A stretch of 64,000 nucleotides of DNA, from contig CM000152.2 of NCBI GenBank assembly GCA_000004695.1, positions 1,216,001 through 1,280,000 of the forward strand, read 5' to 3'. Below, in pieces: positions 43,999 to 51,160 of the stretch (positions are counted from its first letter, which is position 1; every line of letters begins with the position of its first letter). The notes under the pieces were generated by a model. The model ran no database searches and had not been told where the DNA came from. It worked only from the letters and a program-made list of their open reading frames with translations. Source of the DNA: Dictyostelium discoideum. Its lineage: Eukaryota. The translations under genes and the position numbers were made by a program.

Positions 43999-44744
43999 AA
44001 TCCCCTTTGAACTATACCTTTAATTGTAAAAAATATATTTGGTTCACAAGAATGATTTAATAAAGCTGGTTTATAGAAATAACCATTTGAAATTGGTTTA
44101 CGATTAAAGTCATTTGAAAGACCAGAGAATGAATTAATATAGATTGAAGAAATTATTTGTAAAAACTCATCTTTATTAAAGATTGCTAATAATGATGGAT
44201 CAGAATTCTCTTGTTGTAATTGATTGATAAATTGTTGGAAATTAATATCATACTTTTCAATGAATGATTTATTAATTTCAATGAATTTCTCTAATTGATT
44301 TGAAAGTTTACCAACTGTTTCTTGATATTTATCACTTTCAATCTTATTTCTAATCATTATTCTCAATGCCAATAAACATGTTGATACATCACATTCATTC
44401 TTTATTGATGATTCAATCAATTTATTAATGAATGAACATTCCAATTGATGTGTCATATCATTTGAACAAATTTCTGAACAAAACCACATATTACATCCAA
44501 ATTTACATTGAATTGATTTATTATTTGTTTGTTGTGGTTGTTGGGATGGTTGTTGTACTTGTTCAACTTCCGATTGTTTACAACATAAGAAACAGTAATC
44601 TTTGTTCATATGAAATTCTAATGGAATTGATGCAAATGATTCTTCTGGGAATAATAATTCTCCAACTTTAATTTCATTTGTAGCTACAACAAAATTTCCT
44701 CTTTCATCATTATTATTTACTAATTTACATTTATCTGTAATCAT
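42942..44744 (-). CDS. SET and MYND domain-containing (SMYD-family) lysine methyltransferase-like protein, 2 exons: complement(42942..43906, 44018..44744)
   Basis: MYND-type zinc finger (CFLCCKQ...CKFGCNMWFCSEICSN...HQLEC) is inserted in the SET domain. ...NHSCEPNIFFTIK is then split by a 111-bp intron (GTATAG 44017 ... TTTTTATAG 43907) from |DKNLEMRACKKIEKDEEIVDSYVDLL... (post-SET signature). A Cys cluster CKCSRCSDS follows. Confidence 0.75.
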
Positions 44745-45225
44745 TTTTTTGATTATTGTTGGAAATTAGAAAAAAAAAAAATAAAAAAAAATAAAAAAAA
44801 AAAAATTTTCGTTCGTTTTTTTTTTTTTTTATTTTTTTTTTTATTTTTACCTTTCCTTTTTTTTTTTTTTTTTTTTACCACACACACGTCATTATTTATT
44901 TTTATTTTTTATTTTTTATTTTTTGTTTTTATTTTTTTTATTTTTTTTTTTTTAAGTAAATTACAGGGTGTTACTATTTTTATTTTTACTATAAATTTGG
45001 TTTTTTTTTTGTTTTGTTTTTATTTTATTTTTTACTATTTTTTTTTTTTTTTTTTGTGAATTTTCAAATTAAAAAAAGATTTTTATTTTTAATTTTTTTT
45101 TTTTTTATTTTTAATTTTTTTTTTTTTTTAATTTTTTAAAAATTTTTTTTTTTTTTTTTTCCTTTTTTTTTTTTTATTCAAAATTTTATAGGTTTATAAA
45201 TATATATATAAAGAAAATAAAAAAA

Positions 45226-45756
45226 ATGAACGGTCAAGGAAAGTATGTAGGATTTGGAAATGAAAAATCATCATCAGATTCACCATTTCCAGAATTACGT
45301 TCCAATTGGAGGGAACTCATTTATTTAAGATCTTGGCAAGCATCAGGTTTTGTTACAGTTTTATATTATTTCAGCTTTTTAGTTGGATTAATGTATTTCA
45401 TTCAAAACATTGTATTATTCACTAGAGACCTTGGTGCAGGTGGTTTCTTCCTTGGTTTACTCTATGGTACTTTGTATTTCATTAGTTTTATTTTAGCCGC
45501 TCGTATCGTTTCAGAAATCGTTTTATCAATTTTCGATATTAGAGATAACATTTACAGAATTTCAGCAAGCTCTGGTCCATCCATTGTTTCAAGTGGTCCA
45601 TCAACTTCATCATATCAAGGTTCATACCAACAACCAACTTATCAACCACCACAACCATCCCAACAACAACAACAACCATCCCAACAACAATCTTACCAAC
45701 AATCATCTTCAACTGAATTCCCAAAATACCAAGAACCATATCAAGGTAACCTTTAA
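45226..45756 (+). CDS. small membrane protein (two predicted TM helices, Gln/Pro-rich C-terminus); possibly DUF4282-like
   Basis: Single 176-aa ORF. Hydrophobic segments FVTVLYYFSFLVGLMYFIQNIVLF and GGFFLGLLYGTLYFISFILAA, then RIVSEIVLSIFDIRDNIYRI. The domain guess is from memory only. Confidence 0.55.
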   Translation: MNGQGKYVGFGNEKSSSDSPFPELRSNWRELIYLRSWQASGFVTVLYYFSFLVGLMYFIQNIVLFTRDLGAGGFFLGLLYGTLYFISFILAARIVSEIVLSIFDIRDNIYRISASSGPSIVSSGPSTSSYQGSYQQPTYQPPQPSQQQQQPSQQQSYQQSSSTEFPKYQEPYQGNL

Positions 45757-45827
45757 ATAATTTTTTATTTATTTAAAAATCAAGACCAAATGAAAATAAA
45801 AAAAAAAATAAAAAAAAATTAAAACAA

Positions 45828-45860
<33 letters not shown>

Positions 45861-46148
45861 AATTGTTTTGTAAGACTTAATTTTTTATTATTATTTTATT
45901 TTATTTTATTTTATTTTTTTCTTTTCTTGGTGTGAAAATTATTTAAAAATAATAATAATAATAATATTGATAATAATAATAATTATGTGATCAAATTTGA
46001 TGGATTTTATTTTAAGATATTTTTTTTTTTTTTTTTTTTTTTTCTTTGGTTGCAAATCTATGGAGAGAAAGCTGGTTTGTTAAGAATATTTATTAAAAAA
46101 TGGTATAAAATAAATTAGTATTATTTTATTTTATTATTTTATTTTTTT

Positions 46149-46283
46149 TTAAAAAAAAAAAAAATTACAATTTGGTTTTTTTTTTGGTTGCGTAACCAAG
46201 GGTGCGGGGGGAGCAACTGCTGGCTTTGGAATTGTAGCCCTCATATTGTTAGAATTTGTTACACCATTTCCTGCAAAATTCAT
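46149..46283 (-). CDS. putative small ORF a (44 codons, MNFAGNGVTNSNNMRATIPKPAVAPPAPLVTQPKKKPN...) overlapping an unusually GC-rich island; alternatively a structured ncRNA
   Basis: Minus-strand ATG 46283-46281. GC-rich core 46186-46242 (GGTTGCGTAACC hairpin, CCCCCC run) uses codons that are rare for this genome. A conserved upstream element lies about 160 bp 5' on the minus strand (plus coordinates 46441-46452). Confidence 0.2.
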   Translation of the reverse strand: MNFAGNGVTNSNNMRATIPKPAVAPPAPLVTQPKKKPNCNFFFF

Positions 46284-46618
46284 TTTTTTTTTTTATTTCT
46301 ATTGTTTGTTGTTTTTATTAAAAAAATTATAATTAAATTAGAAAAATAAAAAAAATTTTTCACTCAAAATAATAAAAATATTGACCAAAAAAAAAAAATA
46401 AAAAAAAAAAAAGAAAAAAAATATCTAAAAAAAAAAAAAATCTAAAATATCTTTTTGTTGTGATCCTTACAGGATATTGGAAAAAAAAATATTCATACGA
46501 AATTTTTTTTTTTATTTTTTTATTTTTTTATTTTTTTATATTTTTATTTTTTTATATTTTTTGTTTTTAATTTTTTTTTTTTTCTTTAAACTTTGTCAAC
46601 ATTTATTTGACCAAATAT

Positions 46619-46649
<31 letters not shown>

Positions 46650-46787
46650 TGAATTAATAAATATATTTTTTTGAATTTGTAATTTCTTATAAGGCAAATT
46701 TTTTTGGATCTTTTGAAATTGATAATTAAATTTTTTAAATTTTAGTGATTGTTAAATAATTATTTTTTAGAATTTGTTTTTTTATTA

Positions 46788-46895
46788 TCAATTATAAAAC
46801 TTACCAATTGTAATTACACCATTTGGAGGTGAAATTTTTTTATTGCCACCATTTCCTTGGTGATGAAGATTTGGGGAAATTTTTATTTTTAACAT
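46788..46895 (-). CDS. putative small ORF b (MLKIKISPNLHHQGNGGNKKISPPNGVITIG...), contains a GTAAGT donor after codon 30
   Basis: Minus-strand ATG 46895-46893. Shares the strings GGAAATGGTG / AAATGGTGTAA with ORF a. Conserved upstream element about 140 bp 5' (plus coordinates 47033-47047). Confidence 0.2.
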   Translation of the reverse strand: MLKIKISPNLHHQGNGGNKKISPPNGVITIGKFYN

Positions 46896-46939
46896 TTTAT
46901 TTTAATTGATTATGGAAGTATATTTTTGTGTTTCAAGAA

Positions 46940-46975
<36 letters not shown>

Positions 46976-47359
46976 TTTTTTTATGTTTACAAAAAAAATA
47001 AAAATATAAAAATTAAAAAAAAAAAAAAAAAAAATCTAAAAATATCTAGGTTTGTATAAAATACCAAAAATTTTAATCAAAAAAAAAAAAATATTGGTTT
47101 TTTGATTTATTTTAATTTTTAATAGACATGTTTAAGCTGTGAAATTATCACCATTATCTATTATTATTATCATTATTATTATTGTTATTATTATAATTAT
47201 TATAGATTAAATAGAAAAACTTTTTTTAATTTATTTAAATATTTAATAAATGTGAAACACCTTTTGGTATTTGTTTAGATTGTAAAACTAGGACTTCCCT
47301 CTATTAAAAAAAAAAAAAAAAAAAATTAATAAATGATCTAATTAATTACTATTCCACTT

Positions 47360-47494
47360 TTTATTTTAAAGATTGGTTGATATACAAACTTCCTGGTTTT
47401 GGTGCTGCTGCTGGTGGAGTGGGTTTAAAAAAGATTTGATTTTTATTACTATTTCCTCCTGGACAGATTGCAGTGGATGGCAGAGTGAAAGTCA
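47360..47494 (-). CDS. putative small ORF c (MTFTLPSTAICPGGNSNKNQIFFKPTPPAAAPKPGSLYINQSLK)
   Basis: Minus-strand ATG 47494-47492. Pro/Ala-rich KPTPPAAAPKPG resembles IPKPAVAPPAP in ORF a. Conserved upstream element about 150 bp 5' (plus coordinates 47643-47657). Confidence 0.2.
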
Positions 47495-47610
47495 TTGTTG
47501 AGAAATAAAAAAGTAATGATGATGGGAATGAAATAAAAAAAAAAAAAAAAATTAAAAAAAATAAGAGTTATTATTGTGTGGGATGAAAAAAAAAAATAAA
47601 AAAAAAAAAA

Positions 47611-47644
<34 letters not shown>

Positions 47645-48353
47645 TCTGAAAATATCTTTTTTATTTGTACATTTGCACTTTTTTTAAAAAAATATTTTCA
47701 TTTTTATTTTATTTTTTTTTATTTTCCATTTATATTTATTTTATTGTTTTTTTAAAAAAAAAGATAATTGATTGGATATAATTAAAATAATTAAATAGTT
47801 ACCTCTCTTATTTTTAATTATTATTATTATTTTTTTTTAATTTTTAAATCCAAATAAATGAATTGAATCTGGATTATTATAGGTTTTTTTTCTTTTTAAT
47901 AATTAAATTAGAAATAAAAAAAAAAAAAATATATTTATATATACCGATTCAGTCAAATAAATTATATTATTTTATTTTATTTATTTTTTATTCAAAATAA
48001 TCTATTTTTTTTAAATAAAATATATTCCCTCTCCTTTTTCCTCAAAATATAAAACAATTACAAAAAATGAATAATAATTAAATTCTAAAAATGAAATTTT
48101 TGATTAAAAAAATAAATAAATAAAATAAAAATAAAAATAAAAATTGATGATTAAAATAAGTTTTTATTCTTTTTTTATTTATTTGAAAAGGTGACACATT
48201 TATTATTTTTTAATTTTTTTAATTTTTTCAAAAAAAAAAAAATAAAAAAAAAAAAAAAAAAAAAAAATTGAAAAAAAAAGAATAAAAATATTTATTTTGT
48301 CATTGGCAATACCAATAATATAACTTTTCATAAAACAAGTTTTATCTCTAAAA

Positions 48354-48486
48354 ATGTGGATTTCCAAAACCAGTAAACCTAATGGATTATTTTTATTTTT
48401 TAGGCCAATATTAAGAAACCCATATTTTGTACTTGAAAAACAAAATACAAATTATTTAATCACAGGTAACATTACCTTCAATAATT

Positions 48487-48520
<34 letters not shown>

Positions 48521-49280
48521 TTTACTTATTTTTTAAAAAAAAAACAATTTTCCTAACTAATAATTTTTTTAAAAAAAAAAGATAAAAGATTTTTACCAAA
48601 AGAATTTTTTTCAAATAAAAATTTTCAATCAAGTATTATTAAAAATAAAAATGATGATGATTATGATTATGATAGTAATAATAATGAAAAATCAATAAAG
48701 AATTTTTTTAAAACATTAAAAGATAAAGATATTAAAGGTGCTTTCAAGGATTTCAAAGAGAAACAAGCTTCAATCACATTAGGTTTCAAAGAGAATAAAG
48801 AAGAATTTGCAAATTTACAAAAAATGCATGACCAAAAACCATTACCACCATTAAATGAAAATGATAAAAAAGCAATGGAACAATTTGGTTTACCAGGTAA
48901 TGATATAATGGTACCATTTATATCATTAACAAATAATGGAAATAATAATAACAATAATAATAATAATAATAACAATAATAATATGATGGGACCAAGACAA
49001 TATAGTTTTTTAACCAAATTGTGGGTTCGTATTATTCCATATGTACCAGTATCATGGTTATTAAGACCAAATGAATCTTATAGAATCCTTTCAACCATTG
49101 ACCCATTAGAACCAACTTTAATATCAACCTCTTCAAATTTTAAAGATATTCAACATCATTGGAACCTTATCGATAAAGAACTCTATAATAGTTTAAAGGT
49201 CTTACCAACAACCTTTGAGAAAAATCATCGTTTAGATTCTTTCTTAAATATTAAACTTCATTCTTTTCCAACTCGTCCTG

Positions 49281-49291
<11 letters not shown>
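48354..49291 (+). CDS. hypothetical protein (about 272 aa) with presequence-like N-terminus, 2 exons: 48354..48465, 48588..49291
   Basis: ATG 48354 (MWISKTSKPNGLFLFFRPILRNPYFVLEK...). GTAACA donor at 48466 (phase 1). Of two nearby AGs, only the acceptor ending at 48587 keeps the frame of the 48824..49291 ORF. Poly-N tract. C-terminal WVRIIPYVPVSWLLRPNESYRIL. No family recognised. Confidence 0.55.
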
Positions 49292-49323
<32 letters not shown>

Positions 49324-49393
49324 ATAGTTTTTTTTTATTTTTAAATAATAAATTTATTATTATTATTATTATTATTGTTTTTTTTTTTAAATT

Positions 49394-51160
49394 TTAAGAT
49401 GCCTCTGGAGAATCGAATAGTTTTTTACATTCATCTTCCATAAAATCTTTATAAACTTCGAATCTATGATTTAAGGATTTTTCAGTATGAATTTTTAGAT
49501 AGGAACCCAAGCCACCATCTCTACTACTTGAACCATATACAACTCTTTTAACTCTACTATGAACTAGAGCCATTGAGCACATTATGCAGGGCTCTTTAGT
49601 TATAAATAAATGAAAGTTTGTCGCTAAATATTGTCCAAGATTTACAAAACTTAAAATATTACATTCTTCTTTTTCTTCTTTTTCTTCTTTTTCTTCTTTT
49701 TCTTTTTCTTCATCATTATCATTACAAATTTCATTTTCATTTTTATTTTCATTTTTATTTTCATTTTCGTTTCGATTTTCAAATTGTTTCTCTTTTTCAA
49801 ATTTTTTTTGTTCTTTCATTTGTTTTTTAATATCATCAACTTGTTCAGTTGATAATTTATTGGTTATTGTCATTATACAATGAGAAATGATTGGTGAAAT
49901 ATATTGAGTCTCTGAGATTTCAGGTGTTTCGTCCACTGATATTCTATTGGTTTGATCATATGATGTTGCAACGATTTTATTAGTATTTGGGTCAATTAAA
50001 ACTGCACCAATTCCTTTATGACCTCTCTTTTTACCAATCTCAGCTTGCTCAATAGCTAATGACATATACTTTCTCATTTCTAATAATGTTTCATCTTTTA
50101 CATTTGATATTAATGGTGTTGAACTATTATTATTATTAATATTATTATTATTATTATTATTATAAAGATGGTTAGTACAAAACAATATGAATAAAAAAAA
50201 AAAAAAAAGAAAATAATAAAAAAATAAAAAAATCATACAAAATATGAGCTCTAAATACACATGGCCAAATATTATAATTCCAATCCTCCCATATTTCATA
50301 AAGCAAAGGTGGATATTTTGGTACTTTTTCAATTGAAACTATAAAATCATTACTTTTTATAAATTTAATAATTCCTTTTTGTTCATTTGATAATGATTGA
50401 TATTCACTATCATCATCATTACCTATAAATTTAATTTCACCCAACTCTTTATCATATTCAACATTCTCTAATATAATCTTTAAATTCTTAAATCTAGATT
50501 CACCACAAATTAATAATTGTAATAAATTACCTGTTTGTGATGATTGTTTTGTTGAATTTTTTGAAACTTTATTATCTTTTTCTACTTCTTCTTCTTCCTC
50601 TTCTTTATGTTTATCTTTTTCTTTATCACCATCAACAATTGTAGTTGATGGTGGAGGTGGTGATGGTTTCTTTTTTATTTTCTTTAAATGATTAAATTCA
50701 GAGGTGAAATCATCATTAATAATGTGTGATAATGTTTTTATATGTTTATTTGCTGTTTGTGCTAATATATCAATCACATATATATTATCTAATAATATTA
50801 TTAAAGAAGTGAGAATTAGAACTTGAGATGTTTTTTTTTTAATCTTTTAATTTTTTAATTTTTTTTTTTTTTTTACAAACCTAAAACCAAACCATATTCC
50901 TCAAAATCGTCCAAAACTGGTTTAACTTGAGTTTTTATTCTTTTTAAAAATTCATTTTCTTCTTCGGTGAATTTTGGTGTTTCAACTTTATTTTTATTAT
51001 TTTTACTGGTGTTTACTTTCTTTTGTTTATTTGATTCTTTTTTATTATTTTCACTTTTATTTATATTATTATTATCATCAATTATTTTAGTATTAATATC
51101 TAAATTAGTTTCTGATTGTTGTGTCATTTCATTATGATCTCTTTTATGAATACTACGCAT
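49394..51160 (-). CDS. adat3: tRNA-specific adenosine deaminase subunit 3-like (ADAT3/Tad3; CDA fold with His-Cys-Ile in place of catalytic H-A-E), 3 exons: complement(49394..50123, 50239..50788, 50881..51160)
   Basis: C-terminal exon has GAVLIDP...SHCIMT...PCIMCSMALVHSRVKRVVYG. The middle ORF 50172..50777 has no ATG anywhere (the track's M is GTG), so it must be an internal exon. The upstream 95-aa ORF ends in a G|GTTTGT donor (50880). It joins through a TTATTAG acceptor (50789) in frame: ...KPVLDDFEEYGLVL|DNIYVIDILAQTANKH, which resembles the Tad3 N-domain (PVLSE..VELVLAYAAPVLDK). Second intron: GTATGA 50238 ... AATAATAG 50124. Confidence 0.7.

Follow-up and report, generated by a model that had tools for sequence, protein, structure and literature searches.

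Does the interval between positions 45757 and 48353 of the 64-kb stretch of Dictyostelium discoideum AX4 chromosome 3 analyzed here (the window) contain genes, and if so, of what kind? Its GC content is only 9–26%, and the listing of open reading frames (ORFs) contains no long ORF within it, the maximum being a low-complexity ORF of 65 amino acids (aa) on the plus strand, in agreement with the sequence-only reading that this analysis follows up. That reading pointed to three short minus-strand ORFs of 35–44 codons, each preceded by the same conserved element, and proposed that they are locally duplicated small-peptide units, a small-RNA gene family, or exons of a single spliced transcript. Three local GC peaks coincide with short ORFs, and the three minus-strand ATGs open ORFs that as unspliced run from 47495 to 47361 (44 aa), 46895 to 46788 (35 aa), and 46283 to 46149 (44 aa); the peptide strings quoted in that reading are all present, with the first ATG at 47495 rather than 47494 as it was given. 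We refer to these as units A, B, and C, respectively; all are on the minus strand and their ATGs are 600 and 612 bp apart. The comparisons described here suggest, with a probability of roughly 75%, that the units are three tandem, same-strand, independently promoted two-exon mini-genes that share a paired upstream element, a phase-1 intron, and a tiny second exon, and that most likely arose by local duplication.

The feature common to the three upstream regions is a pair of related half-sites. The pattern AGATATTTT(N0-1)AGATTTTT has exactly three matches in the 64 kb, on the minus strand in each case (47657, 47047, and 46452), and none in 100 dinucleotide-preserving shuffles; a relaxed pattern, RGATWTTT-N0-8-RGATWTTT, finds the same three sites only, compared to 0.5 expected in 64 kb under a second-order Markov null. 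Single half-sites are common, with 45 in the window, and AGATATTTT alone occurs 12 times versus ~6 expected; as the pair is confined to three sites, it is the pair that is the specific feature. No pair is found outside the unit promoters, either in the 64-kb window or on both strands of other Dictyostelium loci (L001–L005; ~71 kb), every match being upstream of a unit. The description of a conserved element 5′ to each ATG is thus borne out, with the three sites spaced by ~600 bp and situated 152–169 nucleotides (nt) from their ATGs. A run of 14–25 T's (oligo(dT)) follows the element.

The element is conserved together with the genes. The comparison set consists of eight genomes with 24 unit copies, drawn from D. 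discoideum AX4 and three further strains, D. cf. discoideum (2), D. citrinum (2), and D. firmibasis. Paired half-sites are present at –126 to –218 in 23 of the 24 promoters, with a start-to-start spacing of 9–14 nt, the exception being unit A of D. cf. discoideum ACTFIY, in which the second half-site is lost (AGATATTTTTAATTTT) and one is retained. The unit A element lies at –135 to –165 in all eight genomes, as a single half-site in ACTFIY and inverted in ACTFIZ, and identity among element bases is 81–91%, versus 45–74% for other intergenic bases. In ACTFIZ (D. cf. discoideum) the pairs upstream of both A and B are inverted (AAATATCT-AAAAATATCT and AAAAATCT-AAAAATATCT, at L006 ~6459–6438 and ~5839–5818, minus strand), with the distance to the ATG and the 10-nt half-site spacing unchanged and the genes intact; the unit C element in this genome is not inverted. 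This implies either two inversions of ~20–25 nt in one lineage, or one inversion that was spread by gene conversion. An element that moves with its gene, is constrained in position, is conserved above its surroundings, and tolerates inversion behaves as a transcription-factor binding site, and it is best seen as an orientation-independent site of this kind rather than as a splice acceptor, an RNA signal, or a directional core-promoter box.

Unit C has an additional feature, a palindrome just upstream of its element (Table 1), which is kept as ATCC-N5-GGAT in 8/8 genomes. The D. citrinum version is ATCCT-AAA-AGGAT, and that of D. firmibasis is ATCCA-GTT-TGGAT, a compensatory double change; the palindrome may represent two opposed GGAT half-sites or form a hairpin.

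The two-exon structure emerges from alignment of the syntenic gaps. Aligning AX4, D. cf. discoideum, and D. citrinum with MAFFT reveals conserved islands within otherwise poorly alignable A/T sequence, corresponding to the three ORFs, to a small block 77–103 nt downstream of each ORF, and to the element. A GT follows every ORF, and a T-rich tract and an AG precede every downstream block, such that joining the ORF to the block generates a phase-1 intron and a short exon 2 that ends in a stop codon, in 9/9 copies, then in 12/12 with the inclusion of D. firmibasis, and then in 24/24 with four more genomes. Among the 24 copies the coding part of exon 1 is 91–127 nt, the GT-AG intron 77–135 nt, and the coding part of exon 2 14–26 nt, with the intron 5–9 codons before the stop in each unit. 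In the nine copies measured, exon 1 has a GC content of 30–42% versus 9–16% for the introns, and the exon 2 blocks form islands of 22–53% GC amid 9–16% GC. When all nearby GT/AG combinations are enumerated, a C-terminus conserved in all species is obtained only with the proposed junctions or in-frame equivalents: ..(S/N/G)F(T/S)(I/S) for A, ..(K/I)F(A/T/L)(L/I/P/M) for B, and ..(S/G)F(S/T/Q)(P/L) for C. The unit A donor, A|GTTNGTA, and its acceptor after the T-tract are likewise conserved in all species. From this conservation we infer that splicing occurs at the proposed junctions; the unspliced ORFs of 35–44 codons are then not likely to be the products, and the tiny exon 2 would replace their last few codons.

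The reading frame is preserved throughout. The ATG, frame, and stop are intact in 24/24 copies, and the ten length classes of exon 1 (106, 109, 112, and 127 nt for A; 91, 97, and 103 nt for B; 103, 112, and 115 nt for C) are all 1 modulo 3, while the coding lengths of exon 2 differ by multiples of three. The 20 intron-length classes are, in contrast, spread over all residues modulo 3, and the frame has therefore been maintained through at least ten indel classes. Frame 0 of the spliced coding sequence is free of stops in 12/12 copies, whereas frames +1 and +2 are closed in 23/24. Between AX4 and D. citrinum, gapping affects 4% of exon positions versus 34% of intergenic positions. Start codons lie in an A-rich context, which is typical for Dictyostelium.

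The peptides predicted from these structures, which we infer to be translated, are 37–49 aa across the genomes (37–43 aa in AX4), hydrophilic, and basic, with isoelectric points of 9.7–11.3 and net charges of +2 to +6. Gly, Asn, Pro, Lys, Ser, and Thr together account for 53–72% of residues, there is no signal peptide, and the peptides end in a conserved F-(T/S/A)-(I/L/P) C-terminus. A Pfam scan of the peptides matched no family, the exact spliced peptides are absent from a collection of 15 billion proteins, and a profile search with a 12-peptide alignment against 5.8 billion proteins recovered only two AX4 gene models.

Table 1. Predicted features of units A, B, and C in AX4 (window coordinates; element distances are from the first base of the element to the ATG)
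Feature	Coordinates	Strand	Description
Unit A element	47640..47657	-	AGATATTTTCAGATTTTT; two RGATWTTT half-sites 10 nt apart, 162 nt upstream of ATG
Unit A exon 1, coding part	47390..47495	-	ATG 47495; 106 nt, ends in phase 1; ATG shared with DDB_G0278837
Unit A intron	47301..47389	-	89 nt, GTTTGT...AATAG, 15% GC
Unit A exon 2, coding part	47275..47300	-	..KGSPSFTI then stop; predicted product 43 aa, MTFTLPSTAICPGGNSNKNQIFFKPTPPAAAPKPGKGSPSFTI
Unit A AATAAA	47230..47235	-	Within conserved block TTAAATATTTAAATAAA, 39 nt past stop
Unit B element	47030..47047	-	AGATATTTTTAGATTTTT; 152 nt upstream of ATG
Unit B exon 1, coding part	46805..46895	-	ATG 46895; 91 nt, phase 1; presumably DDB_G0278835
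Unit B intron	46710..46804	-	95 nt, GTAAGT...CAAAAG, 12% GC
Unit B exon 2, coding part	46687..46709	-	..DPKKFAL then stop; predicted product 37 aa, MLKIKISPNLHHQGNGGNKKISPPNGVITIDPKKFAL
Unit B first AATAAA	46602..46607	-	79 nt past stop
Unit C palindrome	46463..46475	-	ATCCT-GTA-AGGAT; two opposed GGAT half-sites just upstream of unit C element
Unit C element	46418..46452	-	AGATATTTTAGATTTTT plus third half-site AGATATTTT (46426-46418); 169 nt upstream of ATG
Unit C exon 1, coding part	46169..46283	-	ATG 46283; 115 nt, phase 1; DDB_G0278833 reads through the donor
Unit C intron	46072..46168	-	97 nt, GTAATT...ACCAG, 9% GC
Unit C exon 2, coding part	46058..46071	-	..SFSP then stop; predicted product 42 aa, MNFAGNGVTNSNNMRATIPKPAVAPPAPLVTQPKKKPNSFSP
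Unit C first AATAAA	46006..46011	-	46 nt past stop

The three units share their strand, the ~600-bp spacing, the phase and position of the intron, and the element at –152 to –169, and local duplication followed by rapid divergence is the simplest account of this arrangement. Peptides A and C are similar (z = 5.8, with none of 300 composition-preserving shuffles reaching the score), A and B have the motif G-x-(G/S)-N-K-(N/K)-x-I in common, and at the nucleotide level GGAAATGGTG and AAATGGTGTAA are common to B and C and CCAGCAG to A and C, confirming the shared strings noted in the sequence-only reading. Direct nucleotide alignment of the units and repeat finding are dominated by A/T runs and did not establish homology beyond the element. 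The family is present in 24/24 copies in the eight genomes of the D. discoideum, D. citrinum, and D. firmibasis clade, and the ORFs are thus conserved in other dictyostelids of this group. In D. purpureum, synteny ends immediately after the DUF4282 gene, and the 16.8-kb locus has no match to the element and only chance-level tblastn matches, although with such fast divergence this does not prove absence.

Each unit also appears to be a gene of its own, with its own ATG, in-frame stop, AATAAA, and element. Units B and A of D. firmibasis have a DDE_Tnp_4 transposase gene (393 aa; L004 11010–12364, plus strand) between them, which extends the gap to ~6 kb and places the two ATGs 3.7 kb apart, and neither unit nor element is disrupted; B and A keep their own elements, at –154 and –185. 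Retention of these elements across a transposon insertion indicates that the units are independent.

The trio is not wholly new to annotation. The plus-strand gene at 45226–45756, immediately before the interval, is DDB_G0278831, which encodes a DUF4282 transmembrane protein (exact protein look-up). In the AX4 reference the unspliced unit C ORF is DDB_G0278833 (EAL68018 / Q54XN4), and unit A, found through the peptide-alignment profile search, is DDB_G0278837 (EAL68020 / Q54XN2), a 57-aa model with an identical ATG and different splicing; both proteins are labelled uncharacterized. DDB_G0278835 falls between these and is presumably unit B, judging from the order of identifiers and accessions (the gap at EAL68019); ten alternative unit B models have no exact match in public protein sets, and no contig is on record as encoding the 44-aa product of DDB_G0278833. 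The interval is therefore not gene-less in AX4, as had been supposed, and at least two of the units are already catalogued as hypothetical genes, with structures that cross-species sequence comparison does not support. The description does hold for 2025-era annotations of five other assemblies, which call no gene in the gap (the annotations compared span a second D. discoideum assembly, two each of D. citrinum and D. cf. discoideum, D. firmibasis, and D. discoideum ACTFIW). The 2025 gene tables of D. discoideum, D. citrinum, D. cf. discoideum, and D. firmibasis (L001–L004 and L006–L008) lack the whole trio of micro-protein genes present in the AX4 annotation of 2005, and this omission suggests a systematic loss of genes shorter than 50 codons from the new gene sets. 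We found no description of the family relationship, the common phase-1 intron, or the shared promoter element in the literature searched (gene identifiers, the motif, and Dictyostelium small ORFs).

A sixth assembly, of D. discoideum strain ACTFIR, has one 118-aa model in the gap (L009 5914–6400, minus strand; approximately window 47140–47210). We reconstructed this as an AX4-type junction followed by a 40-nt 'intron' leading into an expanded (AAT)n tract that codes for poly-Asn, and regard it as an artefact. ACTFIR alone shows great expansion of the (AAT)n microsatellite that lies downstream of unit A, and the model is an instance of microsatellite-driven annotation.

Published transcriptomic data place the three genes together. 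In Additional file 7 of Rosengarten et al. 2015 (PMC4403905), DDB_G0278837, DDB_G0278835, and DDB_G0278833 follow one another directly in two columns of the sheet suspension_DOWN, which from the header row and column counting are DOWN_Hr04_gradual and DOWN_Hr05_gradual; DDB_G0278833 is additionally listed in DOWN_Hr03_gradual. Co-listing of the three identifiers as DOWN indicates that, at gene level, they are transcribed in growing or early-starved cells and fall together in the first hours of starvation with cyclic AMP pulsing. The transcription anticipated in the sequence-only reading is thus seen in RNA-seq at the level of whole genes. Cell-type RNA-seq supplements make no mention of the trio genes. 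Taken with the separate ATGs, stops, and AATAAA signals and an element in 23/24 promoters, this co-listing favors the proposal of locally duplicated small-peptide units, with the amendment that their ORFs are of two exons rather than one.

Several observations nonetheless weigh against this picture. The splicing is deduced from conservation, and the unit A donors (GTTTGT, GTTGGT, and GTTAGT) carry an unusual T at +3. Differences by codon position number 239, 199, and 271, and there are 104 synonymous and 321 nonsynonymous codon changes, approximately the neutral proportion, so that purifying selection on the amino acids is not evident; exon identity between AX4 and D. citrinum is 72%, barely above the 68% of alignable intergenic sequence. 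No trio peptide is present in the supplementary tables of a 2026 life-cycle proteome study, in which peptides this small are easily missed. The peptide similarity of B is not significant (A–B z = 1.8, with 11/300 shuffles reaching the score; B–C z = 0.1), and the paralogy of unit B therefore rests on architecture. The presumed match of DDB_G0278835 to unit B comes from identifier and accession order, and the trio identifiers are found in the suspension DOWN lists only, with none in the filter or UP sheets (PMC4403905). The residues conserved among the peptides form only short islands, CPGGNSNK, QGNGGNKK, MNFAGxGVTNSNNM, and the C-terminal F-T-I / GFTP. With the frame kept and residues changing at a near-neutral rate, selection acts on the frame and on a small number of motifs, most residues being replaced rapidly, and this combination of near-neutral divergence and strict ORF maintenance fits young, fast-evolving micro-proteins.

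Other accounts of the units differ in whether, and how, the ORFs are read. The existing AX4 models, with unit C as an unspliced 44-aa ORF and unit A as a 57-aa protein whose junctions are 4 nt and 2 nt from those proposed here, have the standing of reference models, the unit A donor that they use (GTATAT) looks more canonical than GTTTGT, and the 57-aa frame is open in D. cf. discoideum too. With the AX4 junctions, however, the unit A product ends at once in D. citrinum (..KQS), where there is a 5-nt indel inside the extra coding region, and has no equivalent in D. firmibasis, and the unspliced unit C tails (..CNFFFF and ..CNVFFFSKKTNKII) are not conserved whereas the spliced tails are (SFSP / GFTP / GFQP). 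Together with exon 2 blocks that stand out as conserved islands of higher GC than their surroundings, this makes it unlikely that the reference structures are correct. The units could alternatively be transcribed as short spliced long non-coding RNAs, in which the ORFs are incidental and the conserved blocks have functions at the RNA or DNA level. The near-neutral amino-acid divergence is what such RNAs would display, and the peptides are of low complexity and have neither a domain nor proteomic detection. This interpretation has difficulty in accounting for an ATG, frame, and stop kept in every copy, for exon 1 lengths that are all 1 modulo 3 next to introns that vary freely, for a frame 0 that is open where the others are closed, and for a C-terminal F-T-I / G-F-T-P motif that is conserved across species and units in the coding frame only. 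The A-rich start context and the lack of any Rfam match are also at odds with it; a scan of 44000–50000 with cmscan and Rfam 15 at E values up to 5 gave only two chance-level matches, to unrelated viral and bacterial cis-regulatory models. We thus consider non-coding units improbable, and the suggestion of a small-RNA gene family has no support, there being no Rfam match and a reading frame preserved through the indels.

The element itself has also been open to other interpretations. Its TTTTTAG and TTTTCAG strings resemble a polypyrimidine tract with AG, and in the sequence-only reading it was considered as a possible 3′ splice site (TATTTTTAG), making the units exons of one spliced transcript. 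The AG is, however, followed by the T-run and by ~150 nt at 7–15% GC, which is not exon-like, every unit has its own ATG, conserved in-frame stop, and AATAAA, and the D. firmibasis transposase gene puts 3.7 kb between B and A. Moreover, the ACTFIZ inversion would destroy the acceptor, yet the genes are intact, and the half-sites of AX4 unit C abut without a spacer base (AGATATTTTAGATTTTT), and the D. firmibasis sequence is GGATATTTTATTTTGGAT, showing that TTTNAG is not the conserved part. A single spliced transcript is extremely improbable, and we reject it. The element could instead be the core promoter, a TATA-like box with oligo(dT) ahead of the start site, and not a site for a regulatory factor: it is AT-rich, oligo(dT) follows it directly, and its distance from the ATG is fixed. 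Dictyostelium promoters are reportedly organized in this way, with a TATA box, then an oligo(dT) stretch, then the start site, as Kimmel and Firtel are said to have described in 1983. But the element has no TATAAA match, its conserved letters are a G and a GAT core repeated at one helical turn, it is inverted yet retained in one strain, which is unexpected for a directional core element, and no other promoter in the 64-kb window has it. There is accordingly little likelihood that it is a core-promoter box.

As to which factor might read such a site, the most plausible candidates are GATA-type zinc-finger or SHAQKYF-type MYB proteins. Reverse-complemented, the AX4 element reads AAAAATCT-N-AAAATATCT, which we take to be, letter for letter, the plant CCA1-binding site and evening element, recognized by SHAQKYF-class MYB proteins; plant-type specificity has, however, no support in Dictyostelium. 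The likeness to GATA sites lies in the conserved core (A/G)GAT(A/T) repeated at one helical turn, to which unit C adds GGATC and an opposed ATCC, and in the promoter-proximal, orientation-independent placement. It differs from these in having T rather than R after GATA, and GATT in the second half-site: compared to WGATAR, half-site 1 is AGATAT (with T where R is expected), half-site 2 is AGATTT, and unit C has GGATCA, all of which are compatible only with relaxed GATA, GATC, or GATT specificities. In Dictyostelium, GtaC recognizes a GATA-like motif in vivo and the sequence GATC in vitro (PMC4506546), and SHAQKY-family MYBs exist as well, including MybE, the only one of them with a published site, whose consensus is AAC(a/t)GTT (PMC2845816). 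The trio genes are absent from the GtaC supplementary tables, and we discarded MybE as a reader of the element because AAC(a/t)GTT is not in it.

Other features are located around the promoters. T-runs occupy ~60 nt beyond the unit A element, and the first sequence other than T to follow them, CATCCCACACAATAA (47571–47585, minus strand), is 80–90 nt before the ATG and might correspond to the start-site region; a single mismatch separates it from [AT]CCCA[CT]AA, which we take to be the consensus of the Dictyostelium upstream sequence element (DUSE). The D. firmibasis counterpart is CCACCCAAGCAATAA, and the string is not clearly conserved in D. citrinum. The trio resembles DUSE-dependent small non-coding RNA genes (Class I RNAs and small nuclear RNAs) in that its units are small, lie in AT-rich DNA between genes, and are preceded by a conserved motif, and in having a DUSE-like TCCCACACAA ~80–90 nt upstream of the unit A ATG, but differs from them in the lack of an Rfam match, in a DUSE-like string that is unconserved in D. 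citrinum and D. firmibasis, and in the presence of conserved spliced ORFs. The unit B promoter of ACTFIY contains a 79-bp local duplication that generates two identical copies of CAAACCAAGATATTTTTAGATTTTTATTTCC (L003 7781–7860, minus strand). Between the 3′ end of unit B and the unit C promoter is a tandem array with an 8-nt period (TTTATTTTTTTA-like in the plus-strand reading; 46503–46600), which is of low complexity and varies between species.

In the preferred explanation, each mini-gene has two RGAT(A/T)TTT half-sites separated by one helical turn, which precede the ATG by ~150 nt and are followed by a long oligo(dT) stretch, then coding exon 1, an AT-rich phase-1 GT-AG intron, and a very short exon 2 with its own AATAAA. 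A shared factor acting on the pair, as we take to underlie the common growth-phase and early-starvation expression of the trio, would have the three genes expressed in growth and reduced by 4–5 h of starvation in suspension.

The trio belongs with what is already known of Dictyostelium, as a fairly ordinary lineage-specific tandem micro-protein gene family with a shared cis-element, and its novelty is modest, offering little surprise to a specialist. It corresponds to the lineage-restricted tandem small 'hypothetical protein' genes of Dictyostelium, being at the same loci, with short ORFs in an AT-rich gap that are transcribed (PMC4403905), but differs from the models of those genes in that the reference structures are unsupported across species, with C unspliced and the A junctions shifted. 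The predicted products are similar to the micro-proteins of eukaryotic small ORFs in being shorter than 50 aa, with no domain, a disordered composition, a narrow range, and near-neutral divergence with ORF maintenance, and in being missed by length-based annotation. They differ from these in being spliced, tandemly duplicated with a dedicated cis-element, and kept in every clade genome examined.

A more ambitious interpretation, which we consider a long shot, is that the trio encodes clade-specific cationic Pro/Gly/Asn-rich growth-phase micro-peptides that are under diversifying, not purifying, selection and are switched off together early in starvation through a dedicated, orientation-independent GAT(A/T)TTTT-pair enhancer. 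If so, they could serve as defence-type or signaling peptides that leave the cell with no signal sequence, such as antimicrobial-like peptides rich in proline or a signal of density or of the pre-starvation state, and the element would define a previously undescribed growth-phase regulon together with its transcription factor.

The practical value of the two-exon mini-genes is for annotation and regulation; they do not represent a new type of system. Two-exon ORFs of fewer than 50 codons can be rescued when genomes of the D. discoideum, D. citrinum, and D. firmibasis clade are compared with synteny as a guide. A compact, highly specific, and orientation-tolerant cis-element is rarely pinned down in promoters that are 85–90% A+T, and this one may be used to find the factor and further members of a growth-phase or early-starvation regulon. 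The trio also offers clear examples of ORFs that are maintained while their residues turn over at a near-neutral rate, which makes it useful for studies of young genes.

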